DNA of 60,427 bases, the filler included, from Jimgerdemannia flammicorona (lineage: Eukaryota): the NCBI GenBank assembly GCA_003990765.1. It is 3 parts of 3 records of this genome, joined end to end, with 100 filler letters (N's around TTAATTAATTAA, not from the genome) between each part and the next. Parts side by side here need not be neighbours in the genome. Positions count along the whole stretch, not along the records: positions 20,181 to 40,255 come from RBNJ01001769.1; 2 more parts are not named here. One strand, written 5' to 3'. Under the pieces are notes generated by a model. It was not told the DNA's origin. It searched no databases and saw only the letters and a list, made by a program, of their open reading frames with translations. Both the position numbers and the translations under genes were made by a program. Shown in pieces: positions 1 to 46,182 of the stretch (position 1 is its first letter; each line of letters opens with the position of its first letter).

Positions 1-358
1 CTCTACTACTGTAAAATGGAGATAAAGACTACTACTACTACTGAATACCTCTAGATATGGTAGGAATATGAAATAGAAAACCTCTTCTGTTGGAAATTTT
101 CTCAGATTAGTCTCCAAGAGATACAAGATACTCACTTTATAGATATATATAAATTGAGGGTAGTCAAAAAGATCTATCAGATCTTCAGACATATACTTTA
201 GTTAATTCCCAACTTAAAGTATATCAAAGTCTCAGACTTCAAGGAATTATCAGCCTACTGTATAGATATACTGGAGGTCATGGTGGCCACAGAAGTCCAA
301 TTTACTATTACTTTCAAAAGTAATAAGATAGAAGAGTTCTGGAATCTCATTCTCCAGA
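1..358 (+). pseudogene. Family-B LTR accessory ORF, decayed copy, 5' part (split by element A)
   Basis: Reads ...YEIENLFCWKFSQ...KKIYQIFRH...EEFWNLILQ, matching the intact ORF at 36792-37607. It resumes at 12121 (QNNPDQFL*GLISVF). Confidence 0.9.
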
Positions 359-7260: not shown

Positions 7261-7319
7261 CTGATCCAATGGTGGTGATTTCAGTTGTAGGAGCTTTCCT
7301 TCTATTGATTCTTCTTTAA

Positions 7320-7450: not shown

Positions 7451-7479
7451 AGTAGGTTGGGCTGGGGCTTTGTTTGATG

Positions 7480-7880: not shown

Positions 7881-7949
7881 AGTGTTCTGGTGGTCAGGTT
7901 GTTGAGGTGGTACAGAGTAGTAACTGTTGCTCATGTTGCTGTTTGGAGA

Positions 7950-12120: not shown

Positions 12121-12900
12121 CCAGAACAATCCAGATCAATTCCTATAAGGATTAATCTCAGTTTTCTAAGACCCCAGTATCCAGATTAGACTCCCTCAAG
12201 ATCCTATCTTTATCTCCTACTTTGTAGAGGAAAATGTCATAGACTGAAGAGCCCCTGATCTCTTTGCTCTCTCTACTACTAAATATAGTAATGTCATCTC
12301 ACTAATTGATATATATAAAATATATAAAATATACAAAATAGATGAGATACTTACAGAAATATTTGCTGACCTTATCTTCTTTAAAGATATCCTGACCTCT
12401 GATCTTGATAATAGTGATGAAGATGAAGTCCCTAGAGTTCTAAATATTCTGCTCTAAGTTCTTTATATAACTATTGAAATTATTCTAGTATTCTGATCTT
12501 ATATAACTATTTATATAGATACTCAAATTTGTACTTATAATCTGAAGTTTTCTGTATTCAAGTACCTTATTTATTTAGTTATTGAAATTTATATTTAGTT
12601 TTATAACTTAGCAATCATTGAATTATATTTTATATAAATATCTCTCTCATTTCCTTTAAAATAAACTCAGTATTTAAATACTCAGTATTAAAACTACTTA
12701 AGAAGTATAGAAGTTCTGGTCCTTTACTCAATTTTAAGTAAGCAAATCCAAGAGACAATAGAACAGTTTAAAGATAAGATATTTGAGGACTATAAGATCT
12801 TAAAAAGATACTCCAATAGAACTTGCTTATAAGAAACTTATAGTTGGTCTAAGAGATATATCTTGATATATTTGGAAAGCTTAGTGCCCACTATATAATA
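12121..12900 (+). repeat. Family-B LTR remainder (ORF 3' half with stop at 12455-12457, then R/U5), strongly decayed
   Basis: Reverse-complement match to 36344-37100. Ends CTATATAATA (from CTATGTGACA). No PBS follows. Confidence 0.85.
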
Positions 12901-13280
12901 GTAAAAGAGTGATTATGATAAACCAGTTAGGTGCTAGACTGATAATAGCTATCAGAGTATTATAAGTACTATCTTAGTAGAGTTTTTTAATTGACTAGCT
13001 AGAGGTAAAGTAGTGCAGAGACTAGTATCCTGATTATACTCAACTAAAACTAGAAGCTGATACAGTAATATAATCAAGACTTATAGGCTTAGAGAATGAG
13101 ATCTTTCTTATAAGATAGTATTCAACTAGAACTAAGAGCTAATATAGTAATATAATTGGGGCCTACAGACTTGGAGAGTAGAATTGGGATCTTTTCAGAT
13201 CTTAGCTTATATATTAGTTCTTTTGGAGTAGATTTTATATATATATTAGTCCTTTACTTATCTGTCTTAAATTCTTTTTA

Positions 13281-18240: not shown

Positions 18241-19218
18241 GTATATTTCAAAGTTTGTGTTACATGAGTGATAGTGGAGAAAGATGCGTATTAATCTGAC
18301 TATTCAGTCAAATAGAAGGTTGTCTATTTGATAGTAATAGATACAAAACTACTAAGATTAAATATAGAGATGATAAGATTTATAAGTTTCTTAGTACTAA
18401 TGATAATAAAGTCAGTAAGCTTGATCCTTTAAAGAATATAACTGATATTATTTAATTTGGCCTAGAGAATATTATTGCTAAGCATATTATTTTTTAAAAA
18501 CACAAGTATATATAGACTATTGATAGTTAGAATAAACTAAATAAGAAAGCTATTGAAGTATAAGTCTTTGTAGTTATAGATTAATAGATACTCCAAACTA
18601 TAAGATAGAATAGATATTATCTGATATAAAAAATAATAATCTATAAGATAGAGATGCTAAATAGATAGGTATTGCTAAATAAGATAAATAATAGTAATAT
18701 TATAATTAGAGTTAAAGAGATTGAGTATATAGAGAGTAGTTGGTAAATATAAGGAGATATATTCTGATATAATATCATATTATTCATTATCCTATAATAT
18801 CTCTAGCTCAAGTATCTTAAAATAATAATAGCTATTAAAAAGCTAAATAAGGAGATATCAATTAATATATTGTCACGTAGTGGTCGCTGAGTCCTTCAAA
18901 TATGCCAGATTCTCTTCAAGGTGTATCTCTTAGACTAACTCAAGTTTGTTATAAGCAAGTTCTTATTGGAGTGCCTTCCTAAGGTCTTATAGTCCTCAAA
19001 CTTCTTATCTTTAACTGTCTTGTTATCTCTTAGATTGCTTGCAAGGAAGTGTGTGTAAGTGAACTTGACTGAAACTTGACTGACTTTATTTCAGAGGAAA
19101 TAAGAGAGGTATTTATACAAAATATAATTCAATGGTTGCTAAGATATAAAGCTAAATATAAATTCCAATAACTAAAACTACTGAGTTCTAGGGCTGGCAT
19201 TATTTAGTACTACATCAA

Positions 19219-19345
19219 AATACTGGTGCTGGAACAATTTTGCGTCACCTCAGAATACCGGTGCTGGAACAATTTCGCGTCACCTCAGAATACCGGTGCT
19301 GGAACAATTTCCAGTGTTACATGAGAATACTGGTGCTGGCATTAT
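19219..19345. repeat. ~35-bp tandem repeat with core AATACCGGTGCTGG, 4 units
   Basis: Cores start at 19219, 19254, 19289 and 19326. Confidence 0.9.
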
Positions 19346-19363
19346 CTAGTGTAACAAAGAACT

Positions 19364-20080
19364 TTAGAGCAGAAAGTTCAGGATCATGGGAGTTTCATCA
19401 TCATCATCACTGAAGGAGATGAGATCCGCGAATTCGTCATGTAGGTCACGCGTCTCATGTACTTCGTCATTTTCGCGTGCCTTGATGTTGCGCGGGATGA
19501 CGTCATCGATGACGTCATCATGTTCGGGTGTGGTGGGAAAATCGGGAACAAGGTCTGGAGCTCTCCAGTCTATGAGGTTCTCTTCCACAAAATAGGGGAC
19601 AAATGTGGGGTCCTGGGGGGATCTAACCTGGATGCTTGAGCCTTGGAATACTGAGATCAATCCTTGCAGGAATTGGTCTGGGTTGTTCTGAAGGATAGGG
19701 TGCCAGAAGTCTTCTACTTCTTCGCTGTTGAGGGTGATGGTGGACTGGGCTTCTGTAGCTACTCTGGCTTCTAGTGCATTGATGCGGTGGGATGACAGGT
19801 CTCTGAAGTCTGAGACTCTAATATACTCCAAGTTGGGGATTGACCATGGTGCATGCCTGAAGATCTGATGGATCTTCTTTGCTGTCCTTGCCTCACATAG
19901 GTCTATGGGGGTGGCATCTTGTAGCTCTTGAGGGCTGGCCTGTGGGAACTCCCGGCAGAGGAGGTTTCCTATTTCGTATTCCTGCCACATTTGGAGGCAT
20001 TCGGTGGCAATGGTGATCCTTATTTCCATTTCACGGCAGTAGAGGATAAAGTGATAAGGGTCTGCAGTACCCAGGTTGAT
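19364..20080 (-). CDS. Family-B LTR accessory ORF, open, 5'-partial
   Basis: Stop-free from the contig edge to 19364 and closely similar to ORF 36792-37607. Confidence 0.8.
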   Translation of the reverse strand: MNLGTADPYHFILYCREMEIRITIATECLQMWQEYEIGNLLCREFPQASPQELQDATPIDLCEARTAKKIHQIFRHAPWSIPNLEYIRVSDFRDLSSHRINALEARVATEAQSTITLNSEEVEDFWHPILQNNPDQFLQGLISVFQGSSIQVRSPQDPTFVPYFVEENLIDWRAPDLVPDFPTTPEHDDVIDDVIPRNIKARENDEVHETRDLHDEFADLISFSDDDDETPMILNFLL

Positions 20081-20180
20081 NNNNNNNNNNNNNNNNNNNN
20101 NNNNNNNNNNNNNNNNNNNNNNNNTTAATTAATTAANNNNNNNNNNNNNNNNNNNNNNNNNNNNNNNNNNNNNNNNNNNN
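20081..20180. other. Artificial contig linker
   Basis: N44-TTAATTAATTAA-N44, giving stops in all six frames. Confidence 0.98.
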
Positions 20181-20470: not shown

Positions 20471-22318
<1,848 letters not shown>

Positions 22319-23907
22319 TCCTGGGCTGTGGGAAGGGTTGTTGCGTCGAGAGAATGAGCAGTGGCTTTTGTATACTCTCCGCCGTCCATTTTCTCAATTG
22401 TAGCAGTCCATCCGTGACAGTCGACATATAACCTGTTCTATGCCCGCATTCTATCTTAATTACTCACGTGAATTTCCTTATTTATTATGGTCTTAGCCTT
22501 TCGAGTTGTGTAAATATTCGGTGGTTTACATAAAGCAAGTCAACAATCGCTAAGGCGGAAGAGAATTGCTAATAGCCGCACCCGTCTTATTGAAATACCA
22601 CTGTGCTCGCGGCAATCAAGTCAACGAGCCAGGATTTTACGAATATGACCGCCACACCAGATTTGTGCCTTTGTGCCTTTGTGATTGGCATCACGGCATG
22701 CCATTACATACGTGTTTGTAGTACGACATGCTCTGAAACTGAAGCTAGTTGCCTCTCATCTAGGAACCTGTTCTTCTCGTTGTCACACGACCTATGGTAT
22801 ATTCAGCCCCTAATTCTTTTGCCATTCAATTTGCACCCATAGAGTTTCCCCGAGATAGAGGTCTCCATAGTATTCCATGCGGCAAGTTGTCCAGAATAAG
22901 GTTGTTCGAACATATCGAAAAACCGTTTTGAGCGTGGGCAATGCCCTTCCGAAACCGAAGCACTCGCCCCGGTTTATTCATTCAATATGATCGTGCGAAC
23001 GACATATCTTGCGTTCGCTACCACATGAAACGCGACAGATCAGCCGATTAGGTAATGGATACTCGCTCGTAGATTAATCTACTCCAGTTGTCACATTTTC
23101 GTCAGACCGTTGAGCTTAATTATACTACACGAGATGCATCCGTTCATACTGTTGTACCCCTTGCAACTTTCCTCTAGTGAAGCTTATCCATCCTCCGTTG
23201 GCATAGATTCAATGTTGTTGAATGCAGGATGTAATCAGGGTACCTTCGACCTTTGACAAAACGAGCTCCTAATATGCTTGTGAAACATCCTGAACACGGA
23301 GGCTGAGTTGCTTACAAGAGAACACCAGCAACGGAACCCTGCATCATAGTGGGTTGACATCTACGGATGAGCTGATTGTGGATGCCTACCGACCTCGCCA
23401 TCCGAAATAGGAAGCGGTCGCTAGGACTTATGCAGCCGCGGACGAGTCTCATTTACCATAGCTCCGCGGAGCGAACCTAAACTAAAAGATCTCCTAGTTG
23501 ATGTGAGTGGATGCTGCAAACCACCCCGCCAATTTCTTACGTAAAACCTTTAAGACGGCATATTTTCCCGAGATGGGCGTATGTAACCCAGTCTTCGGAC
23601 ATCGAAGCCGCACAAACTTTTGGTCATATTGTTCAGCTGACATTGATGTCATATATTTAAAACTATATCATCCTTTCGAGTAATTAACCTGTTGCGATGG
23701 GCACGAACTATTCAGACGAAAAAACAGGAGGGGAAATTCAAAAACAGATAAACTTTATGTTCGGCAAACAACGTCTTGCAACCCCTGCTGACAATGTAAT
23801 GCTCAACAAATCCCAGCGATCGTACGGAAAATGTATGTCAACATTTAATTTCCGTCCCGAGTCTGGATAAGATCAACAAACACATGATGATTAGGGCCCA
23901 TCTAGAT

Positions 23908-29123: not shown

Positions 29124-30959
29124 TATCATATAGTGGTTGCTGAGTCCTTCAAATACGCCAGATTTTCTTCAAGATGTATCTCTTAGACTAACTCAAGTTG
29201 TTATAAGCAAGTTCTTATTGGAGTGCCTTCCCAAGGTCTTATAGTCCTCAAACTTCTTATCTTTAACTATCTTATTATCTCTTAGATTGCTTACAAGGAA
29301 GTGTGTATAAGTAAAACCGGAACTTGACTGAAACTTGACTGACTTTATTTCAGAGGAAATAAGAGAGATATTTATACAAAATATAATTCAATGGTTACTA
29401 AGATATAAAGCTAAATATAAATTCTAATAACTAAAACTACTAAGTTCCGGGGCTGGCATTATTTAGTATCATATCAAAATACCAGTGCTGGAATAATTTT
29501 GCATCACCTCAGAATACTGGTGCTGGTATTATCCAGTGTAACAAAGAACTTAGAGCAGAAAGTTCAGGACCATGGGAGCTTCATCATCATCATTATCACT
29601 GAAGGAGATAAGGTTCACGAATTCGTCATGCAGGCCACGTGTCTCATATACTTCATTGTCACACATTTCATGTACTTCGCATGGTATGTCATGCGAGATG
29701 ACATCATTGATGACATCATCACATTCGGCTATAGTGGGAAAATCAGGAACAAGGTCTGGAGCTCTCTAGTCTATGAGGTTCTCTTCTACAAAATAAGGAA
29801 CAAATGTGGGGTCTTGAGGAGATCTGATCTGGATACTTGGACCTTGGAATACTGAGATCAATCCTTGCAGGAATTGGTCTGGGTTGTCCTGAAGGATAGG
29901 GTGCCAGAAGTCTTCTACTTCTTTGCTATTGAGGGTGATAGTGGACTGGGCTTCTGTGGCTACCATGGCTTCTAGTACATTGATATGGCAGGATGACAGA
30001 TCTCTAAAGTCTGAGACTCTAACATACTCCAAGTTGGGGATTGACCATAGTGCATGCCTGAAGATCTGATGGATCTTCTTTGCTGTTCTTACCTTATATA
30101 GGTCCATGGAAGTAGTATCTTGTAGCTCTTGAGAGCTGGCCTGTGGGAACTCCTGGCAGAGGAGGTTTCCTATTTCATATTCCTGCCACATTTAGAGGCA
30201 TTCGGTGGCAATGATGATCCTTGTTTCCATTTTGCAGCAGTAGAGAATGAAGTGATAGGGGTCTGCAATACCCAGGTTAACACTAGGAGTCCTTCTTGAG
30301 TGGGTCCTCATGGCTCTTCTGATGTCTTGGAACATCCTTTCCTCGATCAAGATACCTTGATGATTTCTTGACCTTGAGGTTTGGCAAGCAGCAGGCATTT
30401 TGTTTGTGATAAGTCTTTGAGCTATTTTTGGGATTAGTGGTTCTTGTTGATTGCTGCTACTGTGGTTCCTTGATCCTTCTTTTATATTCTTCAGGATGCT
30501 TGTGCTGTGGTCACAATGACTCACAGTTGGTCATCATTGCTCATCTCATATGCCATATGATCTTCTTGTGCTCCAATCTGGTGGCTTATAAGGAAAGGCT
30601 GTCTCCTGTACTAATGTCATCATTCTGGGGTCACCGTTATATCTTCCTCCTGAATAAGGATCTTCCTGAGCATCCTTATTCATTGTCCAGTCCTGAAAAA
30701 TTTGCTGATCCCATAACCTCTGGCAAGGGGTTGAAAACTGGTGTTTATGGGCTGGCGTCTTCCCTTTGTATTTTGGTGTGATGGTGAAGGGTCGCTCTCT
30801 TTATATAGAGCAAGGGCCTGATTCTGATCTTGAGCAATCAGTTGACGGTTCAAACTCCTCTGACTGCAAAAGTCTTCATAGATGAGTAGTTGTCAGTGCC
30901 ATATCCCTTAGAGAATGGTCTAGACAGATAGCCTGCTGATCACGAGACATGCTGTTACA
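29124..30959 (-). repeat. Element B 3' LTR (~1.8 kb)
   Basis: Colinear with 36344-37850. The outer end is tentatively the minus-strand TGTAACA at 30959. No clear PPT is visible. Confidence 0.8.
29550..30398 (-). pseudogene. Family-B LTR accessory ORF with two point stops
   Basis: Single frame MPAA...LNFLL*. Stops at 30192 (CAA->TAA) and 29766 (TGG->TAG). Confidence 0.88.
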
Positions 30960-32202
30960 ATTCATGAACTAGAACCTCATGGGCAGTCATCATGTTTTGC
31001 TTCTCTTGTATAGGTTTGTAGTACTTCTTGAGTCTATTCTTATGTACCATGGTAGGCAGTATAGTCCCTGAGATTTTTCTAAGCCAGAAGGTAGTTCCCT
31101 TGATATCTTGTACGTAGAAGGGTCCTTCCTATTTGGGTTCCAGTTTTTGTGACCATGAGGCTTCTACCATATTTCGATATAGTAGAACCTTTTCTCCAAT
31201 TCGGATGGGTTCTAGGGCCTTGTGATTCTTTTCTGCATTCTTCCTTATCAGTGCTTGTGATTTGGTGATGTAATCTTCAGCCTTCTTCCTGATTTGGTGT
31301 AGTCTCCAGATTTCTGCATCAACCTGTCTCCAAGTTAGGTCTAGATTTGTGGCTGAGGTTCCATCAGAATCTTCTTCTCTGAAGAGCAGCTCTCTTGGGG
31401 TAAAATGTGTGCTCTGTGACCATATGTCTTGTAGGACAGAGAGGGCAGTTGGGAGATAGTTATCCCAATTCTCATATGTCTCTGAGATCTTCGCTAAGAT
31501 GTTCTTGAGGGTCTTATTGGTTCTTTCTGTCTGTCCATTTCCTTGAGGGTAGTATGCAGTGGTCTTGATGTGCTGGATCTTGTATTTCTAATATATTATC
31601 TTGTGGAATCTATTGATAAATTCTGTACTGTGGTCTGTTGTAATTTGCTTTGGTATCTTGTAGTGGCAGATAATTTCTTGGTATAGGAAATTGGCTATAG
31701 AGAGGGTATTGGCTTCTTGTAATGCTCCTGCCTCTATCCATTTGGTGAAGAGGTCTACAATAACTATAATATAGTGGTTTCCTGATAGTGTTACTGGTAG
31801 TGATCTAATGATATTCATTGCGATGTGGTGGAAGGGGATAGGCTCAATTCTTGATGATCTGGGTGCCTGGTCTTGCTGATCTTATTTCTGTTTTTGGTAC
31901 TTGTCACACTCTTTGACAAATTGGCACAGGTCTTTTTCCATCTTGGGCCACCACATAGTTCTTCTTGCCTTATCATATATATTGATTCCTCCTAAGTATC
32001 CTTGCTTGTATACTTCCTTCATTACTTGATACTTCTTATGTTCAGATATTACTAGCTTTTCTCCTTTTCTGAGTGTAGTATTGTCTAATTCAAACTGTTT
32101 CCAAGTCTGGTTGATGATGGTAATTGTCCAGGGTTCAAGGTGGTTGGGCATCTTCCGCTGCCCAAGGTAGCTGATTAATCCATAGTATAGCTCCTTATTC
32201 AT
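30960..32202 (-). pseudogene. Element B integrase (own ORF starting MNKELYY)
   Basis: WWPKM...FVKECDK zinc-domain remnant, VDLFTKW, TDHSTEF, TAYYPQGNGQTERTN and EGPFYV. Confidence 0.88.
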
Positions 32203-33430
32203 GTTGAATAGTCTTGATAGAGATGTTTCGGGGTATCCTTAAGAGTGCATCAGCATTGGTGTTGGTCTTTCCTGGGCAGTGCTTGACAGTACAGTCATAT
32301 TCTTGCAGTCTGTAGATCCATCTGGCATATATTCCTTTGGGGTTCAGAGTGTGGAATAGCCAGACAAGAGCGGAATAGTCTGTCTGAATGGTGAAGTGTT
32401 TTCCAGCTAGGTAGTAGTGGAACTTGTCTACTGCCCAAACTACCACTAAGCATTCAAGCTTACATGACTCATAGTTCTGTTCTACTCTATGGGTACCTCA
32501 GCTTGTGTAGGAGATGACATATTTATGTCCATCTTTCTTCTGAGCTAGGACTGCTCCAAGTCCTATAGCACTCGCATCTGTCTGCAGGATGAATTCTAGG
32601 TTTCAGTCTGATCTTCTGAGGATGGGTGCTTGGATCAACCTGGTCTTGAGTTCATTGAAGGTTTCTTGGTACTCCTTGGTCTATTCAAATTTGATCTCCT
32701 TCTTCAGTAGCTCATAGATAGGTGCTGCAATGTTGGAGTATTCTTTGATAAATCTTCTGTAGTAGCTGGCCAGTCTAAGGAAGGCGTGAACTTCTGTGGT
32801 TGTTCTGGGTCTTGGGTAGGCTGCAACAGCCTCAATCTTCATGGGGTCTGTGTGGATTCCAGTCTGGTTGATGAGGTGTCCTAGGTAGGTGATTTCTTGA
32901 GCTACAAACTTGCATTTCTTGGGCTTGATGTAGAGGCCATGCTCCTTGAGCCTTGTGAGGACTAGCTGTATGTGATTGATATGTTCCTGTGCAGTGTTGC
33001 TGAAGATGATCACATTATCAATATAGACAAAGAGCCATTTTCCAATCTCGTTGCTGAAGACTCTGTTCATCATTCACTGGAAACTTGCTGGGGCATTGCA
33101 CATTCCAAATGGCATTCGCAGATAGATGTAGGTGGCATTAGGTATGATGAAGGCTGATTTCTCACTGGCATCTTGAGTGAGACCGATCTGATGGAAGCCT
33201 GAGAACAGATCCAAGGTGGTGTAGTATTTGGCTTCACTTCCAAGGGTGGTAAGGATTTCTTGAATATTCGGCAAGGGCTGCCTATCCTTCTTGGTGATGG
33301 CATTGAGTTTCCTGTAGTCAATGCAGAGTCTTGGTGCAAACTCTCCAGGCTTGCTTCCTTTCTTTGGGGCAAGGACAATAGGTGAGGCCCAGGGGCTGAT
33401 AGCTTGCTTGATGATTCCAGCTTCTTCCAT
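32195..33430 (-). pseudogene. Element B RT and RNase H
   Basis: [39 protein letters not shown](D), QTDASAIGLGAVL and NADAL. Confidence 0.93.
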
Positions 33431-33709
33431 TTCCTTGAGTTTGGCTCATAGCCACTCTCTGTAGGCAGGTGGTATGGGTCTGGCTTTCTGGTAGATAGGC
33501 TTGGTATCACCAGTGTCAACTTCGTGGTGGTACTTGGGTTCTTGATTGTAGATATCCCTAAAGTCTGTAGCAAGTACTTCTTTGTTCTGGTATAGGATCT
33601 TGAGAAGTTGTTCCTCTAAGGGAAAGTTTTCTCCAATGGTATATGTGTGCTTGTTCTGGTCCTTGTTTTTCTTGTGCTCAAGTTCAGTAATCTTGGTGGC
33701 AGCATAGGC

Positions 33710-34120
33710 TCCTCTTTCAGTAGATCTAAAGCCTTGTTCTCCTCTCTTGGTTTTGATAAGTTCAGTGGCTTCTATGATCTTGGGCTTCTTAATTTCGTAG
33801 ATCAGCATCTGGGCAATCCTGTCATGCTTCTTGACTTCGAAGGGGGTAGTGTGGTTGTGATTTCTGACTATGAGAAAAATCTCACCAGTGTAATCAGGGT
33901 CAATTACTCCTCCTTCAACTGAGATTTCGCTTTTGGCCAGACTGCTCCTGGTTTTGATAATTCTGGCATGGTTTTCTGGCAACTTGACTCCAATTCCAGT
34001 GCCAAGTAGGGTGGTGGTCTGTGGTTTGAGGGTAGCATCTTAGATGCTGGCAAGATCCATTCCTATGGCTCCTTCAGTCTTATATTCTGGGATCTTGGCT
34101 TCAGGGTGAAACTTCTTGAC
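33710..34120 (-). pseudogene. dUTPase domain of element B (between protease and RT)
   Basis: GAIGMDL, RSSLA, GGVIDPDYTGEI, DRIAQML and RGEQGFRST. Confidence 0.92.
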
Positions 34121-34249
34121 CTTGAGAGTGATGTCTGGTTCTTATTCCTCCTCATCGTCACTGTCAGCTTAAAGCTCTGGGGGCTGGTCATCTTCTTCAG
34201 CTTTCCTTTTTGCTTTGGTAGCTTCTTGCTCATATTTTCATTGGTGGAT

Positions 34250-34390
34250 TTTCCTGACTTTACTGATACAGGACCAGCAGTCATTCAGGTGTTTGGAGTA
34301 GTACATTCTAGTACCATGGGGGCATCTTCCTTGAGGGGCATACCCATCGATGATCTTGTTATACCACTGCTCATCTGTGAGCTTGAGTGT
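34250..34390 (-). other. CPHG-x-CxxC module between protease and dUTPase of element B
   Basis: EQWYNKIIDGYAPQGRCPHGTRMYYSKHLNDCWSCISK (ORF 34238-34420). Confidence 0.75.
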
Positions 34391-34499
34391 CTTGTTCTTG
34401 TTCTTGTTCACCAAGTGCATGAAGACCTCTGTGTCTTCTTCATCTCCTTCCTCTATGTCTGGCAGGACTCCTTTGTAGATATTGATAGAAACTCATACC

Positions 34500-36223
34500 T
34501 TTCTCCCTCTGTAGTTGATCTGTATCTTCTGGGCATTGAGGTCAATGATGGCCTTGGCCTTGTGAAGTCATTGGTTGCCAATGAGGATGTCATAGTTGGT
34601 GGCGCTTGTAATAATAACATCTACTGGGATAGTAGCTCCTCTTATCTTGATAGAGACTTCTCAGATTTTGTCAAGGGGGGTAGCTCGTGTAATATCTACT
34701 GTGATATAGACCATTTTGGTAGACTCTTCAATATCCCAATCTAGGCAGTCAATTGCCTTCTTGCTCATGAGGCATCCTCCAGCACTAGTATCAATGATAG
34801 CATCAAAGATACAGTCTTCAATCTGGCAGGGGGTATAGGTTGATGTCTTGCGCTAGTCTTCGGATTCTTCACCTGAGTTCTCAGATTCTTCTTGTGCATT
34901 ATGAGCTTCTACAATCTTGTACTCTTAATTCTTGACAGTGGTTGCAAGTCCTACTCTCAATTGCTGTCTGAAGGCAGGGACTTCAGCTAGCTGCCCAAAA
35001 GTGGCATTGACCTTCTGTTCCTTGAGGTCCTTGTAGATGTCATACTGGTGGATCTTGGTCTTATGCAGCTTCTGTTCCTTCTTGCTCTCACTTTCTCCTG
35101 AGACTGAAGTAGTACCTTTGATGATTTGGTGGGTGGCCTCGTCTAACTCCATGTCTTGATCAATCTCCTCGTGTTGGGTCTTGCTTTGAATAGTGACAGC
35201 TGGAGTCTTTTTTAGTCTTCCAACTGGCTTGCTGTTGCTCTTCTTGTCATAGGGCTTGGACCGGGTTCTGGTACCTTCAGTAGCAGGGTAGAATTCGAGC
35301 TCCTCATAGTATTCTTCATCATCAGTATTACCAATCTCCTCAATGACTACTGCATTGGTTTGTTCTCTGGTTCTGCTAGCATTGCTTGGTTGGGTTTTGC
35401 ATCTTGTTTCGGTTATGTAATTCTTTGCATAGTGGCCTTCTTCTCTACATCTGAAGCATGTGATGTTATTGTGTTCTTCTATAGTAGCTGCAAATCTCTG
35501 CACTGGTCTCCAGTTGACACTTCAGACTTCTCTGACAACATCATCAAGGTGTACAGTCATCTCGGTGAACTGCTTGGCAAGTTCTTCCACTGGGTCAGCT
35601 TTGGCTATCTTGGGGGTAGGTGGGGTTGGTTGTCTGTTTACGACTGTGGTAGGTAAGATACTAGTTGGCTTTGATGGCTCCATCTTGATGCTAGTTATTT
35701 TCTCCATTGAGTATTCAGCAGGGTGTCTGGCAGTCCAATATCTCTGTGCAAAGACCACTTTTTGATCAAGGGTCAGTGTAGCTGGGGTAGACTGGATTGC
35801 TAGGGCAATTTCAGAGTGAACTCCTTTGAGGAAGATTGAATCTACTATTTGTTCCTTGAGGCGATCATCATAGCTAGCCAAGACAATCTGGTGGCAAATT
35901 CGGGTATAGAATGAGTTGGGATCTTCACTAAGTCTCTGGCAGATAGTATTGAGTTGATCCTTGAGAGCTTGCTTGATCTCTTTGGTATAATATGTTGTTC
36001 TGAGGAAGGCCTTCATATTGGCAAGTTTGGCTGCACCAGCATCAGCAATGGTGGCTGCATTGAACTTGTCTCTAGCAGGTCCTCTGAGGCTGACTGGTAG
36101 AAGGGCCAATTGAGCATCCACACCAAGGGCTCGTACGATGGCAAATTGTTCAAAGTCTTCAATGAAGGTCAGGATTGACTCTTCAGTAGTATATCTATAG
36201 AATGTAGGAGGATGCATTTCCAT
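34500..36223 (-). pseudogene. Element B gag (zinc knuckle) and protease
   Basis: ORFs 35522-36223 and 34925-35503 share one frame (CFRCREEGHYAKN). Protease AIIDTSAGGCL lies near 34790. Confidence 0.88.
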
Positions 36224-36324
36224 CTTATCTTAAATTCTTACAGGGGTGACTCTTGTAGTCAGGGTAGTTGTTGTGGGAGTTGTTCGTTTTTCAGCTTGAA
36301 AGTGAGAGATTCGTCTTGAATCAC

Positions 36325-36340
36325 CAGCCAATGGGTACCA
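36325..36340 (-). promoter_or_regulatory. PBS of element B (primer unassigned)
   Basis: Minus strand TGGTACCCATTGGCTG, 3 nt from the LTR end. Confidence 0.65.
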
Positions 36341-36343: not shown

Positions 36344-37850
36344 TGTCACATAGTGGTCGCTGAGTCCTTCAAATATGCCAGATTCTCTTCAAGGTATATC
36401 TCTTAGACTAACTCAAGTTGTTATAAGTAAGTTCTTATTGGAGTGCCTTCCCAAGGTCTTATAGTCCTCAAACTTCTTATCTTTAACTGTCTTATTATCT
36501 CTTAGATTGCTTGCAAGGGATTGTGTATTGCACTGAAACTTGACTGACTTTATTTCAGAAGAAATAAGGGAGATATTTATACAAAATATAATTCAATGGT
36601 TGCTAAGATATAAAGCTAAATATAAATTCCAATAACTAAAACTACTGAGTTCCAGAGCTGGCATTATTTAGTACCACATCAAAATACCGGTGCTGGAACA
36701 ATTTCGCGTCACCTCAGAATACCAGTGCTGGCATTATCCAGTGTTACATGAGAATACCGGTGCTGGCATTATCCAGTATAACAAAGAACTTTTAGAGCAG
36801 AAAGTTCAGGATCATGGGAGCTTCATCATCATCATCACTGAAGGAGATGAGATCCGCGAATTCGTCATGTAGGTCGCGTGTCTCACGTACTTTGTGTATG
36901 TCGTGCGGAATGACATCATCGCCGATGACGTCATCATGTTTGGCGGGGAAATCGGGGACAAGATTTGGAGCTCTCCAATCTATGAGGTTCTCTTCCACAA
37001 AATAGGGGACAAATGTGGGGTCTTGGGGGGATCTAACTTGGATGCTTGGGCCTTGGAATACTGAGATCAATCCTTGCAAGAATTGGTCTGGGTTGTCCTG
37101 AAGGATAGGGTGCCAGAAGTCTTCTACTTCTTCGCTGTTGAGGGTGATGGTGGACTGGACTTCTGTAGCTACCCTGGCTTCTAGTGCATTGATGCGGCGG
37201 GATGACAGGTCTCTGAAGTCTGAGACTCTAACATACTCCAAGTTGGGGATTGACCATGGTGCATGCCTGAAGATCTGATGGATCTTCTTTGCTGTCCTTG
37301 TCTCACGTAGGTCTATGGGGGTGGCATCTTGTAGCTCTTGAGGGCTGGCCTGTGGGAACTCCCGACAGAGGAGGTTTCCTATTTCGTATTCCTGCCACAT
37401 TTGGAGGCATTCGGTGGCAATAGTGATCCTTGTTTCCATTTCACGGCAGTAGAGGATAAAGTGATAAGGGTCTGCAGTACCCAGGTTGATGCTAGGAGTC
37501 CTTCTTGAGCGGGTCCTCATGGCTCTTCTGATGTCTTGAAATATCCTTTCCTTGACCAAGATACCTTGATGATTCCTTGACCTTGAGATTTGGTGGGCAG
37601 CAGGCATTTTGTTTGTGGTAAGTCTTTGAGCTATTTTGGGATTGGGGTTCTTGTTGGCTGCTGCTACTGCGGTTCCTTAATCCTTCTTTTATATTCTTCA
37701 GGATACTTGTGCCGTGGTCACAATGACTCACAGTTGGTCATCATTGCTCATCTCGCATGCCATATGATCTTCTTGTACTCTGATCTGGTGGCTTGTAAAG
37801 AAAGGCTGTCTCCTGTGCTGATGTCATCATTCTGGGGTCACCATTACATT
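36344..37850 (-). repeat. Element B 5' LTR, outer end lost
   Basis: TGTCACA terminus. On the minus strand, TATAAATA at 36574-36581 and AATAAA at 36549-36554. Three 35-bp repeats at 36683, 36718 and 36753. Confidence 0.92.
36792..37607 (-). CDS. Intact 271-aa LTR (U3)-encoded accessory protein of unknown function
   Basis: Open frame with ACAAACAAA-ATG context. TATAAAAG at 37686-37693. Four copies in the window. Acidic C-terminus. Confidence 0.85.
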   Translation of the reverse strand: MPAAHQISRSRNHQGILVKERIFQDIRRAMRTRSRRTPSINLGTADPYHFILYCREMETRITIATECLQMWQEYEIGNLLCREFPQASPQELQDATPIDLRETRTAKKIHQIFRHAPWSIPNLEYVRVSDFRDLSSRRINALEARVATEVQSTITLNSEEVEDFWHPILQDNPDQFLQGLISVFQGPSIQVRSPQDPTFVPYFVEENLIDWRAPNLVPDFPAKHDDVIGDDVIPHDIHKVRETRDLHDEFADLISFSDDDDEAPMILNFLL

Positions 37851-40255
37851 ATATAAATTGATTGTTACAATTTAATTATTACTACAGTAGTAAAAAAAAC
37901 TTACTAAATAATATAAAATAATTAATCTTTCTCCAAAAGAACCTATTTTGGATATCAGTATATATTAGAACTCAATATTTATAATAATTGAATATATACT
38001 AAAGTTTATTATAGTAGATTATTGATAATAATATTAAAGAATAATATCAGACTTATTGACTAATATTAATTTATTCAAATATAATTTAAGTATTAAATTC
38101 TATAATTATTGTAGATAAAGAAATGTGGGATATAATAATTAAAGAGAGTGAGTGAGAAAAATTAAGAGAAGTTATTAAAGTTTTATAAGTAAGTAAAGAA
38201 GTATTTATCAGATCTAATATTATTTTACTTATCTCTTTTATACTTTTACTCTTTATTTTACTTTAGTATTTTAATAAATATACAAAAGAAGTTATTTGAC
38301 AAAGTTTCTAACAACATATTTTATAATTCTAGTATATAATCTCTTAATTGATCAACTTGAGAACTTATTAGACTCATTGGAGAACAAATATATATATCTC
38401 TTAGGATAGAAGAAAGCCATTGAAGTAGCTCTGAAGAAGCTCAAAAAATTACTCAAAAATAGGTACTTCTGTATTTTCTGTCAGTACTGGTAAGTTAAGT
38501 ATTATCTTCTATAAATTAAATAAGAGGTTTTATTTTTCTAATTATAATTTAAATATCTGATTAGTTTTAGATCTATGAATAAAGCTTCAATATTATAAAG
38601 ATCAAGGCTGGGAAAAGTAATTTATTAAGAAGATAGAATTAATAATTACTAATATATATCAAAGAAACTATATATCTCTACTAAACTTAGACTATGGTCT
38701 GGACAACTATATCAATAATTCTATTATACATATAGTATCTCTATAATAGAAAAATAAAAAGAGATATTTAATAGATAAACTCATAATATATCTATCTACT
38801 AACTAGATAGTCTTATTAGAGAGTACTAGTATATTAGATTAGTGGAAGGTGAGAATTTTAACAATTATCTCTATTAAATATTATAGAATGTTTTTAAGTT
38901 TTTAGCTTTAAAATTCTCTATATTTTAAATTTGCAGATATATCAGATAGACTTTTCTAATTTAAGCAATATAGTATAAGACTATTTAGCTATTTCTATAA
39001 TAAGTACACTAGTTAAAAGAATATTTTCTAGTAATAAAGAACTTATTATAATAAAGAGATATTTTCTTAAAGCTGAGACTATTTAAACATATATATCTAA
39101 AATTTTAATAGAGCCCTATATCTTTATTTTAACTTATTATAACTATATATATAGTATTTAGTAGAGAATCTTTTAGAAAAGTTAAATTAGTTTAAGTTAA
39201 TATTTTATTAATTATATATAAATATATCTTAAGCTTTATTTACCTGGAGTATAGATTAGAGAATTTGTTAATCAGAGAATTTATTAGTCATTAAGATTGC
39301 TTTTTCTTAGTTACTTAGAGAGTATAAGATAATATTAATATATTAAAAGAAAAACTTTAAAATTCTAAAAGAAAATGAAAAATTGAAATTATGATTTTAT
39401 AGTAATTAGAAAAGACTTAAATTAATAGTCTAAATAATTTAATATTATCAAAACAGAGAATAGTAGAGACCTGTATAGATCACATAATAGATAATTGAGT
39501 AATTTCTAAATTCTATCTAATCAGGGTAATCTGGTGACACTTATCTAAATTATAGGTCATAATATAACTATTTTACTATATATAAGTTCTTAGTCTCTTA
39601 TCTTAAGATATATAGTATAGTAAAATCATCATTTATAATTTTATATTATATGTGATACTATCTGATAGATATTAGTAAATAGAATAAGAGAATACTGCCT
39701 TCTTTCTATATACTTATTAATAGTATATATCTCAATCTCTCTTATTATATATACTATATTAACTGGACAGCTAATTACTATCTAATATTTGACTAGTACT
39801 ATCTCATCTCTATCAGTATAATAATTAAAGATAATAATAGTTACCAAGTCTTTTGGATCTTCACTCTTATCTGAATGAAATTTCAGCTACTCTTATTTGG
39901 ACTTATAAGATATTAATATTATATAATACTATAGTCAGAATAATCATATTTAAAATCATAGTATCTCCAACTCATCATTATCTAGATATGGATCAATTTG
40001 AACATTATAATACTATTGAAAGATATCTGAAAAGTAATATCAAAACAGTCTATAGAGATATTCAAATAGTAGTGTAAGAGTTTCTAGTAGCTGTTAAGTA
40101 AGTCTTTCTTATATTCAGTAATATAGATAATAGAGATCACAGGATAGCTTTAGTGGATTATTCTATTACTTCTATAGTCTAAACTGAAAACTCATAAATC
40201 TCTCACTATTGTAGTAATTATAATATAGTTATAACTTATTGATAACAATACTCAT
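37851..40255. other. Extremely AT/TpA-rich decayed repeat DNA, origin unrecognisable
   Basis: Essentially no CpG and no recognisable motif. Confidence 0.5.
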
Positions 40256-40355
40256 NNNNNNNNNNNNNNNNNNNNNNNNNNNNNNNNNNNNNNNNNNNNT
40301 TAATTAATTAANNNNNNNNNNNNNNNNNNNNNNNNNNNNNNNNNNNNNNNNNNNN
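40256..40355. other. Artificial contig linker
   Basis: N44-TTAATTAATTAA-N44. Confidence 0.98.
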
Positions 40356-42300
40356 CCGCCTTGCAATTCCACAGCTCTCTTCAACCACCAGGCTCTCAAG
40401 CAGTGCAGCCTCTTAGGGAAATCCACCAGGCCAAGACCTCCCCTGACTACCGGTCTCGCAAGAGTGTCCCAACTGATCTGGGACCTCCTCCCCGCCCAAA
40501 TCCAATCCCTAGCCACCTTCACGAGCTTCTTCACCACTCATGCCGGGAAGTCCAGATGATATGCCACATACCACAGCATAGGGAACCAATACACATTCAG
40601 AATCGACACCCGCCCCGCCAAAGAGATATGGCGGCCTCCCCAACCTCGAAGGGCCTCCCCCCAACTATGCACCTTGCTCTCCCACCACACCCTTGGCAAG
40701 ACAGAACCATAGACAGAGAGGAAGATGCCCAGATATCGCACCACCTCACCCGTAGGGACAATTGTTCCAATGACGTCCCCACCCACCAACCCATTCCCTA
40801 GCACCATTGTCTCACACTTATGCCAGTTGAGTTTCGCCCCAGGTCATCCTCCTCAGTGCCTTTCTCTAGCCAAACTACTTTGCCTGCTTCTGGGCATTCC
40901 CAATGAACATTTGCCACTCCGGCTATATTAACCCCCTCCAACTGGGTCTCTGGTACCACCTTGATAACCTCCTCAAAGCTCCCCATGGTCACCTCCTCCT
41001 TATCAGCCCACTTCCCCTTTACTGGTGCATGAGTAGAGTTCTCCACTCTCCCTAGTTGCAAAAAGGACACCTCAGCCATCTCCACCTCTTCCATCTGATT
41101 TTTAGCCAACTCCGCTCTTTCCTTTTCCTCCTTTTCCGAGCCCTGGAGGACCGTCTGCAGGCACTCCCAGTTTGCCCTTCACCACCTCTTCCTCCTCCCA
41201 TTGGTCGGGATCCAGATCTAGTCCTTAGCAAACTCCTCCCATCTCCTCTTCTGCAATTCCTTTGCAGCCTCTCTCTCTTCAAAGGCAACTAGCAATTCCT
41301 CCTCCTCCTGTTCAGAACCCTTCCTTCTCCACACTTTGCACTCCTGCCCTCTGACACAAATCACTTCTGGCCAGTCCCTCCCTTGCCCTGTGGCCTCCTT
41401 GCCCTCCAGTCTCACCATCATCTCGCAATTGCCATTTCTTAGCTTGGTCCCCTCCCAGAACATGAATCCGAAGTCGAGCATCTCGCCAAATGCCCCCAGT
41501 GCCTTCGCCACCATTTCTTTGGTCTCCTGTCTCCCCAATGTTGGCAGCCCTTCAACCACCAGACACACTGCCCATGGGTCCCACCTCAGGCACCTCGCCA
41601 TGTCTACCTTGATACTCTTGATGACCAGCCCTTTCTCCAGGGCCTTCACCATCTCCTCCTCCTCAACAAATCCTATCTCAACTGCCTCTGCTGATGGGAT
41701 GAACTTCAGTGACTCTGCCCCTGCAATCTCCTCCCCCACTAGCCGCAAGACCTCTCTAGCAGATATCTCCAGCCCCAAAAAATTTGCGGAGATGGCCCAC
41801 GTCGACACTGACTTATGGAAGAAGGGATGCACCACCAGTTCACCAGAACCTGCTGCCATCATTGCCTTCTTCTTGTTCTCTGACACTCCAGCAGTTACCC
41901 CAGCCACTGGTCCAGCCCCAGGAATACCAGTCCTAGCCACACCACTTCCAGACCCCTGGCCCCTGGCAGGCACCTGACCAGTCACCTGACCAGTCACCTG
42001 GCCGGTCACCTGACTCCTACCCCTGTCAACACTACGTCCCTCCTGCCCTGCCTCCATGGGCCTAGTAGCCGCCCTCCTGCCCCCTATCACCATGTACCAA
42101 CTCTCAATATCAGCCTGCCTCCCCAGACGACCTGCTCCTCTAGCCCCTACACCAGTCCCTACACCTCCACCAGCCCCAACTGTTGCCGCAAAACTCTTAG
42201 GGAGACCTAGACCAGGCCTCCTTCTCTCTAAACACTCAGAGCTTGATGAACCCTGGGTTACCATCTGATGAAAACTCCACCGAAACAGATGAGACTTGTT
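40356..42300 (-). mobile_element. Internally deleted L1/Tx1-like LINE: ORF1 (41218-42264) and late ORF2 fragment (40356-40807)
   Basis: VRYLGIFLS, SLAGRVSILN and ISWDTLARPVVRGGLGL are post-RT motifs of L1/Tx1. Endonuclease and the RT core are absent. Confidence 0.85.
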
Positions 42301-43184
42301 GTATGCTATAGCTAGACTCCTGTCACACCTTGTACACCAGAATAGGCGACAGGAAAACTTGAGAACATGTTGCTTGTCATGAAAAGATGTCTGTGTGGCT
42401 TAGCTTGCTCTGAATGGTTTGAGCAAAAGAAGTCCCATCAAAACAGCCAAATAAGGCCTGGCCACTTGGCCAACTAGCCAATCCATAAATTTAAGGCCAA
42501 GCCACCCTGGCCAGCCATTGGCCATATGGTCAGCCATCTGGGAATTTTGCTGGACAATATTTTTACAGACACAGATTTTCTATAAATCAACATAAAAATC
42601 CAGGTTTCTGCCAAGTGCCGTGAAAACACAGATTAAAATAGCATCTAACCTCGGCCCATTGCATTCCTTTAGAAAGTGGCATTTGCTTGACATAATAAAA
42701 GCCGAGTGAGCCGCAATATAATTAATGTAATTCTATACTAGAAGTCAATGTATCTCCCCAATATGATTTTTGGGTCAAAATAAAATGGTACAGATGGCAA
42801 TTAATTATGTCCATTCAGGGGCATGTCACCATATACGTAAACGACTTGTACTCTTTGTTAGTTATATGCATGTCAAATTCTGTCCTAAACCTGGGACACA
42901 TTGCCAATATGTCTTAGTATCAGCGACTATGGAGAAGCGGGTGCTTGTGACAAAGTGAGTGGGAGCCGCGGGAGTGGTGTCCGTAAGTAAGTGGAAAGTA
43001 GATGAAAATGCGAGAACGCCGAAATGGCACTTTGACCAACCTTATCAACGCTGCGCTACGGTTAGATAAAACCCTTTCCGCAGTCAAACCACGCCCAGCC
43101 CAACCAAACTCCTTTATTTCACACCCATACCAACCAAACCTCCCTATATCCCCTATATCTCCTATATCTCTCACTTTTATAAAC

Positions 43185-46182
43185 ATGGTCGACCAATCCG
43201 ACAGCGGTTTTAGTCTCAAGGACAATATCGCTTCCATCTGGAAAGACTCAACTTACCACGATGTGACCATTGTCTGCGCTGACGGCGTCGAGCTAGGCGC
43301 ATGCCGTGCCATATTTGCTTCAAGGTTTGTTCGATTTCGATTCTCTCAGCACTTTGTAGCTTTCCATGACACTTTGTTTATCCCTTATTTCACGTGATTT
43401 CTTAAAAGATGCCCGGTCTTCAAGGCGATGCTGTACGGAAACATGCGAGAGGGTTCCTCTCATCGCGTCGTCCTCAACGACATCACCTCCACGGTGCTCA
43501 ACATCGTCCTCGGGTTCATTCACACCGAGACCATCGACAACGCCGCCATACTTTCCATCGCGGTAGGAATATACCGCGCGGCAAGCTTTTTCTACTCCAG
43601 AAGCTCATGGACATGGTACTGGAACGCGCGCACGACCTCGCTGATTCTGGCGTCGCCTCATCGCTTCTCAACGAAGCTGTCGCCGCCATCCCCTGGAGTG
43701 AAGTCCACAAGGACCTCTACGACGTGCTCCTCAACACCTTCCGCACTCATAAACTCGCCATCGGTGAGCTGTCTGACCTATCCGAAGAGTCCCTCGAGCT
43801 GCTCCTCACCGAGAGAGCCACTCTTTCCACACCCGAGCATGACTTATTGTTTACTGGTTCTGGCGACGCAACGAGAACACGCCGTCGGCTTCGGAGTGCC
43901 GTGCAGTTCTGCATGACATTAATGATATGAGTGCAGGACGCCCTGGCACGATCTGGCCAGGAGACGGCGCATCGCGCGCCTTGATGCTCAAAATGATGAG
44001 CCACTTCGACCTCACGCTTGTTTGCCCGCCTCGGCTCAAGACCTTTACGGAGACAGTTGACACGTTTGCGGAAACATCTCCGCATTACATAGCGTTTTGC
44101 CATCAACCCTGCAAGAACACCATATGCCCTACGCGTCAGATACTGCCTGACATAGATCATGACGTAGGAGATTTCCAAATATTCCACTGGAAAATCGAAA
44201 GTTGGCGTGCTCTGACTGGTAGGATTCTCAGCCCAGAATTTGAGGCGGGCGGTTGGAAATGGTATGCATGCTTTACCTCTATATGTATTCGCATTCGAAC
44301 TATCAGGTGAAACTTTGCATAGTCAACAGGGGTTTCAACCGTTTATCCCGCACATGCAGGAATATTCTGCTCTACCCTCTTGGTAACAACCAGGAAGAGT
44401 ATACCTCCATGTATCTTCAACTCGCCGACCCCGGGCCGGCCGAGCAGGAAAAGTATTCGTGCGCTCAGTTCGGGTTGGTGATGTCTAACCCGTTCGATCC
44501 GACCCAATTGGAGCATCACAATTCTCACCACCGATTTGGTGCGGACGAGCCCGACTGGGGTTTCACCCGATTCTACAATATCAACGAGATTTTTCAGCCA
44601 AATAACGGGCGCTCACATCCCTTGGTTGACGATGACCAGACTGTCATCTCTGCTTTTGTGCGTGTCTTGAAAGACCCAACTGGGGTACTATGGCTCAACT
44701 TTGTTAGGTGAGTATTCCTTGTGGGAAAATGTCGTGAATCCATTCCTTGCTATTGTAAATGAAGCTCATTTTTTGCAATTTTTTTACCTAGCTACGACTC
44801 CAAAAAGGTCACCGGTTTTGTCGGTCTCATTAACGAGGGAGCGACTGATTACTTGAACACGGTCGTGCAATGTTTATATATGATAAAATACTTTCGTAAA
44901 TCCGTCTATAAGATGATCCCAACGGAATCGGACGAATCCACCAAGAACGTTGCCTTGTCACTACAGCGCGTGTTTTATAATCTCCAGTTCTCGGAAGAAG
45001 CTGTTGGTAGGTAGGCGCTAGGTTGTTAAGTACAGGAAAGGCCGCTGGAACGGCTTTTATAAGTCCGCTAATATCATTTAAGTAGGGGAAAGTTTTGATT
45101 ACACTCCCTGTTTAGTTAACGAACAACGATTATGGCATACGTCATATATGATTAGGCACAACAGAGTTGACAAATTTCGGTACATCTATTGCGTGCGACT
45201 TTCTGGAGTTTAACTGTATTTTGCAGGAAAACCTGGAGTCAAAAATGAAGGTGTGTAGTGAATGCTACGTTGTTGGGCAAGTCGATGCCAGGTTCTATGC
45301 CACAATACGTCTATGTGACGATACTCCTGCCATTTTTAGAACACGCCGGCTGATGGCGACATGGAGAAACTTTTCGTCGGCAAGATAAAGACTTATTCCA
45401 AGAACATTAACGCCGATGTCGAGTTCTCGCGTGTGGACGACTTTTATAGTAAGCTGGGAATGCGTTACCTTTGGATCACCAATGTACTTGAATATTGATC
45501 CTTGGTGCCTTCTGATTTCGCAATATATTAGACATTGTGCTCAACGTGAGAGGATGCAAAAACCTATATGAATCTTTCGTAATGTTTGTGGCTGAGTACA
45601 TGACAGAAGACTTCAGGAAGTGTGACTATTTCGAGAGCTTTCCGCCCGTGCTATATGTACAACTGAAGCGGTTTGAGTATGACATTTCAAGGGATATTAT
45701 GGTCAAGGTGAGTCCGTGATATAGTGACCCCTGGATAATAGACGCTTCGTTTCGAAATTGAATTGTCCGTCCTTCTGAAAAGATTTAACCATGCCGTCGG
45801 TGCTTAGATTAATGACCGCCATGAATTTCCACCTGAAATCGACCTCGAGGAGTTTCTTTCTCCCACCGCTGATAGAAGCAGACCGCACAATTATCTCCTT
45901 CATGGGTAAGAGTGTTTGGTCAGAAAACTTACAGTTAAAGGCAACACCCTCTGTATTTTTTGCATGCTTGCTTTTGATGACATGTCACTTTTCACATTCA
46001 GCGTCATAGTACATAGCGGTGGTCTCCACGGTGGTCAATACATTGCTTTTCTGAAGCCAGAAAAGGACAGCAAGTGGTTCAAGTACGATGGTGACCGCGT
46101 TACTCCTGTAACGGACTGTGAAGTGTTTCAGGATAACTATGGGGGTGAGGCATCCAATGTCAACCAACTCAGAGCCCTATGA
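43185..46182 (+). pseudogene. BTB-(BACK-like)-MATH-USP7/Ubp15-like fusion, catalytically dead; exons 43185-43324, 43409-44261, 44360-44707, 44792-45006, 45156-45250, 45340-45448, 45532-45707, 45808-45905, 46002-46182
   Basis: BTB DVTIVC...SRCPVFKAMLYGNMRE; MATH DWGFTRF...KDPTGVLW; USP GLINEGATDYLN and HSGGLHGGQY. Frameshift near 43590 and probably another near 43850-43920. GT-AG sites are intact. Confidence 0.8.

Follow-up and report, generated by a model that had tools for sequence, protein, structure and literature searches.

The long terminal repeats (LTRs) of a decayed Ty3/gypsy retrotransposon in Jimgerdemannia flammicorona (Endogonales, Mucoromycota) very probably contain a protein-coding gene. 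The open reading frame (ORF) concerned encodes 271 amino acids (aa) and lies in a window, the whole stretch of DNA analysed, of 60,427 nucleotides (nt) with filler included, along which all coordinates are counted. Comparison with relatives from metagenomes shows, at the level of aligned codons and residues, that purifying selection kept this ORF across lineages differing by up to ~70% in protein sequence. In the reading that is favoured here, with a probability of roughly 0.7 for the whole, including the U3 model described below, the ORF would be a true accessory gene, belonging to a family of Ty3/gypsy elements with dUTPase in an Endogonales fungus. The copies now resident in the window are simply decaying, and to the question of whether the host keeps them intact the evidence says no.

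36792..37607, minus strand: ORF of 271 codons plus stop, starting MPAAHQ at the first ATG (37607) and ending ILNFLL before the stop codon

Coding status, relatives and predicted protein

The frame is open from stop to stop over 36792..37676 on the minus strand (coding part 37607-36795), lies wholly within the LTR in the sense of gag-pol, starts 241 nt from the LTR start and takes up 54% of the LTR. An earlier note on this DNA, made from the sequence alone, had described it as intact and LTR-encoded, and a stop-free frame is indeed found there, inside a paired repeat accompanied by a polypurine tract (PPT) and a primer-binding site (PBS). No ATG-initiated ORF of at least 271 aa arose in dinucleotide shuffles of the LTR (0/1000; mean 79, maximum 224).

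A scan of metagenome contigs yielded a single related locus, L001 (1345 bp), whose ORF, read from the homologous ATG, has 323 open codons and reaches 61% identity to the window ORF in the best segment. Over 270 aligned codons, nonsynonymous divergence (dN) between the two is 0.34 and synonymous divergence (dS) is 1.1-2.5, giving dN/dS ratios of 0.14 (NG86), 0.19 (maximum likelihood) and 0.30 (LWL85), and the differences are distributed over codon positions 1/2/3 as 91/66/142 (chi-square p = 3e-7 versus equal shares). A dN/dS of 0.14-0.30 combined with the third-position excess indicates a translated, constrained gene. Selection on the protein, which the earlier note had suggested with dN/dS as one means of checking it, is thereby upheld at the level of the element family, where relatives extend to 27-44% identity, and is not upheld for the resident copies.

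Further relatives are known as predicted proteins. A word-indexed search of 5.8 billion proteins returned six relatives among 316 candidates, and a profile search of 1.84 billion representatives returned five proteins of 138-342 aa, all of the same family. Their clusters hold at least 18 proteins, all encoded on metagenome contigs (JGI or ENA) 540-4848 bp long; every homologue is metagenomic and named only 'hypothetical protein'. A scan of genome contigs gave no confirmed relative of the ORF, and the only match in a scan of viral contigs (28 residues, 39%, E = 7e-4) was rejected as too short. In the resulting 14-sequence alignment identity falls as low as 27-44% (P0008, P0020, P0009, P0010), and a core of ~170 residues has nine columns without variation and 13 that hardly vary (W, P, G and hydrophobics). 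The motifs DLI(S/N/I)F and P-x-x-LNF recur near the C-terminus, past acidic linkers of very different length. Four of the 14 members (the window ORF, P0002, P0012 and P0009) run from an MP(A/P) start through the LNF end, as does L001; the remaining members are partial, which may reflect contig ends or decay. The window ORF and that of L001 have the same conserved start context, ACAAACAAA(A)TGCCTGC.

The predicted protein has a basic N-terminal part (residues 1-45, 10 K+R, isoelectric point (pI) 12.0), a middle part (residues 46-215) that is mostly helical in an AlphaFold2 model built on the 14-sequence alignment, and an acidic tail (residues 216-271, 16 D+E, pI 4.1) that carries the conserved DLISF and P-x-x-LNF. 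Its maximum 19-residue hydropathy is 0.51, corresponding to no membrane segment; no hydrophobic segment is present, and the protein is predicted to be soluble. The model is helical over residues 47-150, and its predicted local distance difference test score (pLDDT) is 65-79 in blocks between residues 61 and 160, dips to 49 at residues 121-130 and stays below 35 in the tail. Pfam gave no match for the ORF, a PDB profile search none at E <= 10, and Foldseek, with this weak model as query, none against PDB and BFVD at E <= 0.001. The best score in the ESM Atlas was 0.87, below the 0.9 level, in unnamed clusters of which a few members carry a Basidiomycota label, and is a lead only. A match to ATG5_HBR in three of the 14 aligned members (best E = 0.028) was taken as noise. 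Nuclear regulators and activation domains combine a basic part with an acidic tail studded with bulky hydrophobics. By this resemblance, and no more than a resemblance, a nuclear trans-acting regulator of the element, such as a transactivator or adaptor, may be put forward as the preferred but tentative guess at function, on which we would not rely.

The host element and the copies of its LTR

The element that carries the ORF is a decayed, dUTPase-bearing Ty3/gypsy LTR retrotransposon with 1,505-bp LTRs, in which the following parts are recognised.

36344..37848, minus strand: 5' LTR, 1,505 bp, beginning TGTAATGG and ending TGTGACA (self-BLAST and alignment)
29124..30641, minus strand: 3' LTR, the same repeat, with an ORF copy at 29550-30398
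36324..36340, minus strand: PBS-like TGGTACCCATTGGCTGG, TGG-type, 3 nt beyond the 5' LTR
30642..30651, minus strand: PPT AGGAGGAAGA, immediately upstream of the 3' LTR and abutting it
30652..36323, minus strand: decayed internal region (Pfam scans)
34925-36229, minus strand: gag with zf-CCHC (Pfam)
34661-34852, minus strand: protease, weak match (Pfam, E = 0.026)
33446-34039, minus strand: dUTPase, PF00692 (Pfam, E = 2.5e-22), between the protease-like piece and RVT_1
32681-33445, minus strand: reverse transcriptase, RVT_1 (Pfam)
32195-32497, minus strand: RNase H, RT_RNaseH (Pfam)
31129-32238, minus strand: integrase, Integrase_H2C2 and rve (Pfam)

The repeats at 36344-37848 and 29124-30641, both on the minus strand, are 86-92% identical by segment in self-BLAST and a three-way alignment, and both have TG..CA termini, with TGTAATGG first and TGTGACA last in the minus orientation. 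Contigs from other sequencing runs diverge at 36343/36344 into several different flanks and at 37849 pass into the PPT-bearing internal end, and in three contigs of run X2 AGGAGGAAGA is joined to the LTR start. As the other-run contigs leave at both limits of the LTR, its boundaries are independently supported. No tRNA genes were detected in the window by ARAGORN, and the PBS is thus without a matched tRNA. The domain order, gag(CCHC)-protease (PR)-dUTPase-reverse transcriptase (RT)-RNase H-integrase, with the integrase after RT, is that of Ty3/gypsy (Metaviridae). No Pfam match to a chromodomain was obtained among minus-strand ORFs between 30546 and 31163, where the region is decayed. The element is a Ty3/gypsy retrotransposon without env. 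The gag-pol region is split into at least 12 broken pieces, in agreement with the earlier description of a gag-pol riddled with stops.

In addition to the two LTRs of the element, the window contains two other copies of the repeat.

~18871..20080 (lower coordinate approximate), minus strand: third LTR copy, solo or partial, 94.7% identical to the 5' LTR and cut by the N block at 20081
1..358, plus strand: copy 1, first part, an ORF copy at 71-73% nt identity, diverged and with stops, truncated at the beginning of the window and interrupted by the nested element at 359-12120
12121..12911 (end approximate), plus strand: copy 1, second part, ORF tail to the stop (~12457) and remaining LTR, with no PBS after it

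A tblastn search with six homologues recovers exactly four ORF copies in the window, at 37607-36795 (-), 30398-29553 (-), 20080-19373 (-) and 1-381 plus 12122-12454 (+), the same four that had been listed from the sequence alone. Two of them are stop-free, again as listed: the 5' LTR copy (36795-37607) over all 271 codons, and the third copy (19364-20080) over the ~238 codons present, its first ~40 codons being cut off by the N block, past which the LTR is not continued. The 3' LTR copy has 282 codons with two internal stops (CAA>TAA, TGG>TAG) and no frameshift, so that the three better-preserved copies do keep frame. Copy 1 carries at least six stops and is interrupted by an 11.76-kb nested element.

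In the alignment of the three better-preserved window copies, gap blocks within the ORF measure 3, 27, 3, 6 and 6 nt, all five being multiples of three, and those in the rest of the LTR measure 2, 35, 15, 37, 8, 1, 72, 7 and 1 nt, of which two of nine are multiples of three (Fisher p = 0.02). The three acidic-tail strings that the earlier note had quoted as differing by indels are correct. Indels were also tabulated from 265 contig or read pieces of three other runs and one raw-read run, which contributed a single read, in rows that are not independent events; among the rows listed (12 of 17), none falls inside 36795-37607, all lying at 36417-36542 or 37645-37755. One contig joint, from 36866 to 36961 with 94 nt skipped, falls in the variable acidic tail.

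Candidate transcription signals and rival explanations

Candidate signals for transcription flank the ORF on both sides.

37686..37696, minus strand: TATA box GAATATAAAAG, 86 nt before the ATG, candidate promoter of an ORF mRNA
36675..36766, minus strand: 35-bp tandem repeats, 2.6 copies, just past the stop codon, putatively enhancer-like
36542..36582, minus strand: TATAAATA (36582-36575), AATAAA (36554-36549) and TCAGTC (36547-36542), candidate core promoter, poly(A) signal and start at the U3/R border

The identical GAATATAAAAG 11-mer stands 65 nt before the ATG in L001, the protein of which is only 61% identical. A downstream block, consisting of TGTATAAATA(C/T)C, ~20 nt, AATAAA and then (G/C)TCAGTCAA, is common to the window copies and L001 and is still recognisable in the heavily decayed copy 1. 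Window and L001 thus have both the upstream and the downstream set of signals in common, in the midst of DNA that otherwise cannot be aligned. The copy number of the 35-bp array varies between LTR copies, with indels of 35, 37 and 72 nt located there together with joints in contigs of other runs. This pattern of motif conservation inclines us slightly towards a placement of the ORF in U3 with its own promoter. The upstream TATA box, 65-86 nt before the ATG, would drive a separate mRNA of ~1.1 kb that would end at the AATAAA of the same LTR, and the 35-bp repeats would serve as enhancers ahead of the second TATA, TATAAATA. Genomic RNA would start at the A of TCAGTC (36545), ~37 nt after TATAAATA and just past AATAAA. 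With the poly(A) signal located just upstream of this start, genomic RNA would use only the copy in the 3' LTR and R would be short. Any LTR, even a solo one, would in this way be a transcription unit complete in itself.

The same motifs have been weighed under a different arrangement, in which the upstream TATA box is the promoter of the genomic RNA and the ORF lies in an R region of ~1.1 kb, as first cistron and repeated at the RNA 3' end. Conservation in L001 of that TATA box and of its spacing to the ATG would suit this arrangement, but a 271-codon upstream ORF would block translation of gag, transcription would need to run on past the AATAAA at 36554-36549, which would lie 1.1 kb from the cap, and the TATAAATA/AATAAA/TCAGTC block with its tandem repeats resembles a U3/R border. 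Known R regions measure tens to a few hundred bases, and a long R is rather unlikely here. That the ORF is a captured host gene, carried in the LTR as a passenger without a role in the life cycle of the element, appears improbable. Its GC content of 49%, like that of the host coding regions of the window (~50%) and above that of the flanking LTR (36-44%), and the presence of its own candidate TATA box and poly(A) signal are in keeping with such a capture; the profile search, however, returned only members of this family, none of them resembling a host parent, and purifying selection on a passenger would not persist across lineages at 27-60% identity, although capture could still be how the gene arose. 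It is hardly credible that the frame is not a gene and is open by chance in a young repeat, as the lack of a matching family or fold might be taken to mean, given that none of the shuffles reaches 271 aa, that dN/dS is low with a third-position excess, and that open relatives at 38-61% identity share the same start and end.

Two open copies of four beside a broken gag-pol might also be explained by domestication at the level of the host, with the fungus using the protein and some resident LTR copies staying open as a result. Against this stands the distribution of lineage-specific changes, defined as differences assigned to the copy departing from the other two. These number 24/694 in the ORF part versus 12/414 in the non-coding LTR part downstream for the 5' LTR, 12/694 versus 9/414 for the solo LTR, and 61/694 versus 19/414 for the 3' LTR, so that the two open copies carry an equal substitution load inside and outside the ORF. 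In a neutral simulation, in which the observed changes were placed randomly on sites matched for base and CpG/CpA context, only 0.4 stops are expected in each of the 5' LTR and solo copies, making zero a likely outcome (P = 0.63 and 0.62), and 3.6 are expected in the 3' LTR copy, where two are observed. An open ORF beside a riddled gag-pol is thus attributed to the lower load of that LTR copy and not to host selection, and the other two copies, with two and at least six stops, show no protection. Synonymous changes are in modest excess on two branches, that of the 5' LTR (12 versus 7.9 expected, P = 0.048) and that of the 3' LTR (30 versus 22.6, P = 0.016), as domestication would predict, but the same excess is expected if divergence partly predates insertion, to which it is attributed since the 5' LTR resembles the solo LTR more than its own 3' LTR. 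The dN/dS obtained without correction for the window copies (0.24-0.34) was set aside in favour of the simulation, nearly all changes being transitions. Domestication is therefore regarded as very improbable, and under the favoured reading of an element gene selection would act during replication of the element, with two window copies young enough to have stayed intact. The greater similarity of the 5' LTR to the solo LTR is unlike a single insertion with equal decay. In the ORF part of the 3' LTR, 34 C>T and 13 G>A changes (coding strand) occur among ~60 private changes, suggesting either that the 3' LTR was hit much harder, by strand-biased hypermutation, or that the element is recombinant or partly converted. 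The closer match of the 5' LTR is located ~17 kb off in window coordinates (~18871-20080).

Several observations weigh against the reading of an element-borne accessory gene in U3. The dN/dS estimate comes from a single pair, L001 being the sole distant relative available as DNA, and the remaining relatives are protein predictions on short contigs of metagenomes, open by construction; many of them are partial, and P0006 departs from the family frame in the tail. A single distant relative provides the motif conservation behind the proposed U3 placement, the two promoters and the start site. Indels inside the ORF fall in a GAT run and in DDVI-coding 12-mer repeats, which are prone to slip in threes without selection, so that the earlier observation of only frame-preserving indels stands for the window copies (5/5 versus 2/9) and loses some of its force as a sign of selection. 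With 94.7% identity the 5' LTR matches the solo LTR better than its own 3' LTR (88%), and the element may accordingly be recombinant or unevenly mutated. The sequences flanking the element, TATAA before and ATATA after, form a perfect 5-bp target-site duplication only with a one-base shift of the boundary. The structure model is poor, with a mean pLDDT of 52.0 from 14 sequences (37.6 with seven), and the guess at a regulator has the basic and acidic/hydrophobic layout as its only basis.

Surroundings, significance and known parallels

Other features of the window comprise probable host genes and further retroelements.

20471-22393, minus strand: carboxylesterase gene, split into open pieces of 207 aa and 384 aa that each match COesterase (Pfam)
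41218-42399, minus strand: 393-aa open frame without Pfam match in a block of 48-49% GC, probably a host gene
43398-43916, plus strand: BTB/POZ-domain ORF, probably a host gene
359-12120, minus strand: nested Ty3/gypsy element of 11.76 kb inside copy 1, with RT at 6278-6976 and RNase H at 5228-5794
48682-60405, plus strand: further retroelement, with RVT_1 at 53277-53843 and internal repeats at 54308-54602 matching 59919-60220

The carboxylesterase ORF at 20474-21625, the larger piece, is 99% identical to a Jimgerdemannia flammicorona protein, with an Endogone protein third among the matches, and the region has a GC content of ~50%, versus 21-31% in blocks such as 38001-40000. One LTR of the nested element measures ~2.2 kb (9912-12118) and contains no ATG-initiated ORF above 86 aa; the other (361-3622) contains ~1.2 kb of additional DNA and is longer by that amount. 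The retroelement at 48682-60405 has matches in reverse orientation in fragments at 13331-13518 and 14846-15366. The N blocks at 20081-20180 and 40256-40355 each consist of 44 N, 12 bases and 44 N, the first of them being the one that cuts the third LTR copy. Small shares of the sequence words of the window are found in metagenomes of soil and rhizosphere, as well as in two coded organisms.

LTRs usually count as control regions that encode no protein, and the textbook exception is the superantigen gene of mouse mammary tumour virus (MMTV). A gene in the LTR is copied twice per insertion, persists in solo LTRs and shares its DNA with promoter and polyadenylation signals, and as annotation pipelines for transposable elements mask LTRs, such genes are systematically missed. 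A further possibility, which must be called doubtful, is that every LTR, even a solo one, acts as an autonomous gene, equipped with promoter, ORF and poly(A) signal, and makes a trans-acting helper factor for the family, which could activate LTR transcription or blunt silencing by the host. If so, placement in the LTR would double the gene dose per insertion, and the gene would survive LTR-LTR recombination that deletes gag-pol, so that the genome would fill with helper copies outliving their elements. Should the protein act as a regulator or counter-silencing factor, its accessory function would be of a new kind for a retrotransposon, would occur in an early-diverging, transposon-rich lineage of mycorrhizal fungi, and would be reason to seek coding LTRs elsewhere.

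The closest parallel in placement is MMTV sag, a superantigen ORF of ~300 codons that lies wholly inside the U3 of an unusually long LTR (>1.2 kb), in sense orientation and twice per provirus. The present ORF likewise lies in sense inside a long LTR with two copies per element and, if the U3 model holds, it would also share with sag a short R and a poly(A) signal upstream of the RNA start. MMTV Sag is a type II membrane glycoprotein, whereas the protein described here has no Pfam match and, with a maximum hydropathy of 0.51, no membrane segment; the host element also differs in being a fungal Ty3/gypsy retrotransposon without env, and the ORF in having its own conserved TATA box. The nef gene of human and simian immunodeficiency viruses (HIV/SIV) and bel/bet of foamy viruses are accessory non-structural genes at the 3' end and in U3. 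Unlike the ORF of this element, to which no similarity was found, they only overlap U3 and are expressed from spliced RNAs or RNAs of internal promoters. In Tas-like transactivators of foamy viruses, a part that binds nucleic acid is joined to an acidic activation domain, a layout that the basic N-terminus and acidic tail of the present protein recall, a likeness in function being a guess. Extra conserved ORFs of unknown function occur in plant Ty3/gypsy elements, for example ORF1 of Ogre. Those of Ogre, Retand and Athila lie internally, before gag or after pol, unlike the LTR-borne ORF.

Among the papers found, those on an 'LTR ORF' mostly concern MMTV sag, and in passages of two others the wording denotes ORFs of the whole element (PMC12037069, PMC6673714). 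No LTR-borne conserved protein gene of an LTR retrotransposon was found in the full-text literature searched, a body of text that largely leaves out subscription journals and Repbase, so that an earlier description is possible. CERV of the C. elegans Ty3/gypsy element Cer1 is described as a lineage-specific orphan accessory protein that is nuclear and acts on the element's own RNA, and that is made from a spliced mRNA of the internal region, unlike the product of an LTR-borne ORF (PMC10309623). Athila, according to passages of a further paper, carries an extra ORF of unknown function in a plant Ty3/gypsy element, and the same passages place a dUTPase between PR and RT in PosPlaTy3-5 of Postia placenta and report dUTPase in Ty3/gypsy elements of Phanerochaete and Tuber (PMC2864245). 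Its passages on dUTPase elements mention no ORF in their LTRs, and for the layout with dUTPase between PR and RT they report Basidiomycota only, plus dUTPase in an ascomycete (PMC2864245); the layout is here observed in Endogonales. As far as those passages go, the present element resembles PosPlaTy3-5 in having its dUTPase between the protease and RT and differs from the elements of Postia, Phanerochaete and Tuber (Basidiomycota and Ascomycota) in residing in a member of the Mucoromycota. Taken together, the placement of a gene in an LTR is known from MMTV sag, and what appears to be new here is the placement of a probable accessory gene, with its own candidate promoter signals, in the LTR of a fungal retrotransposon.

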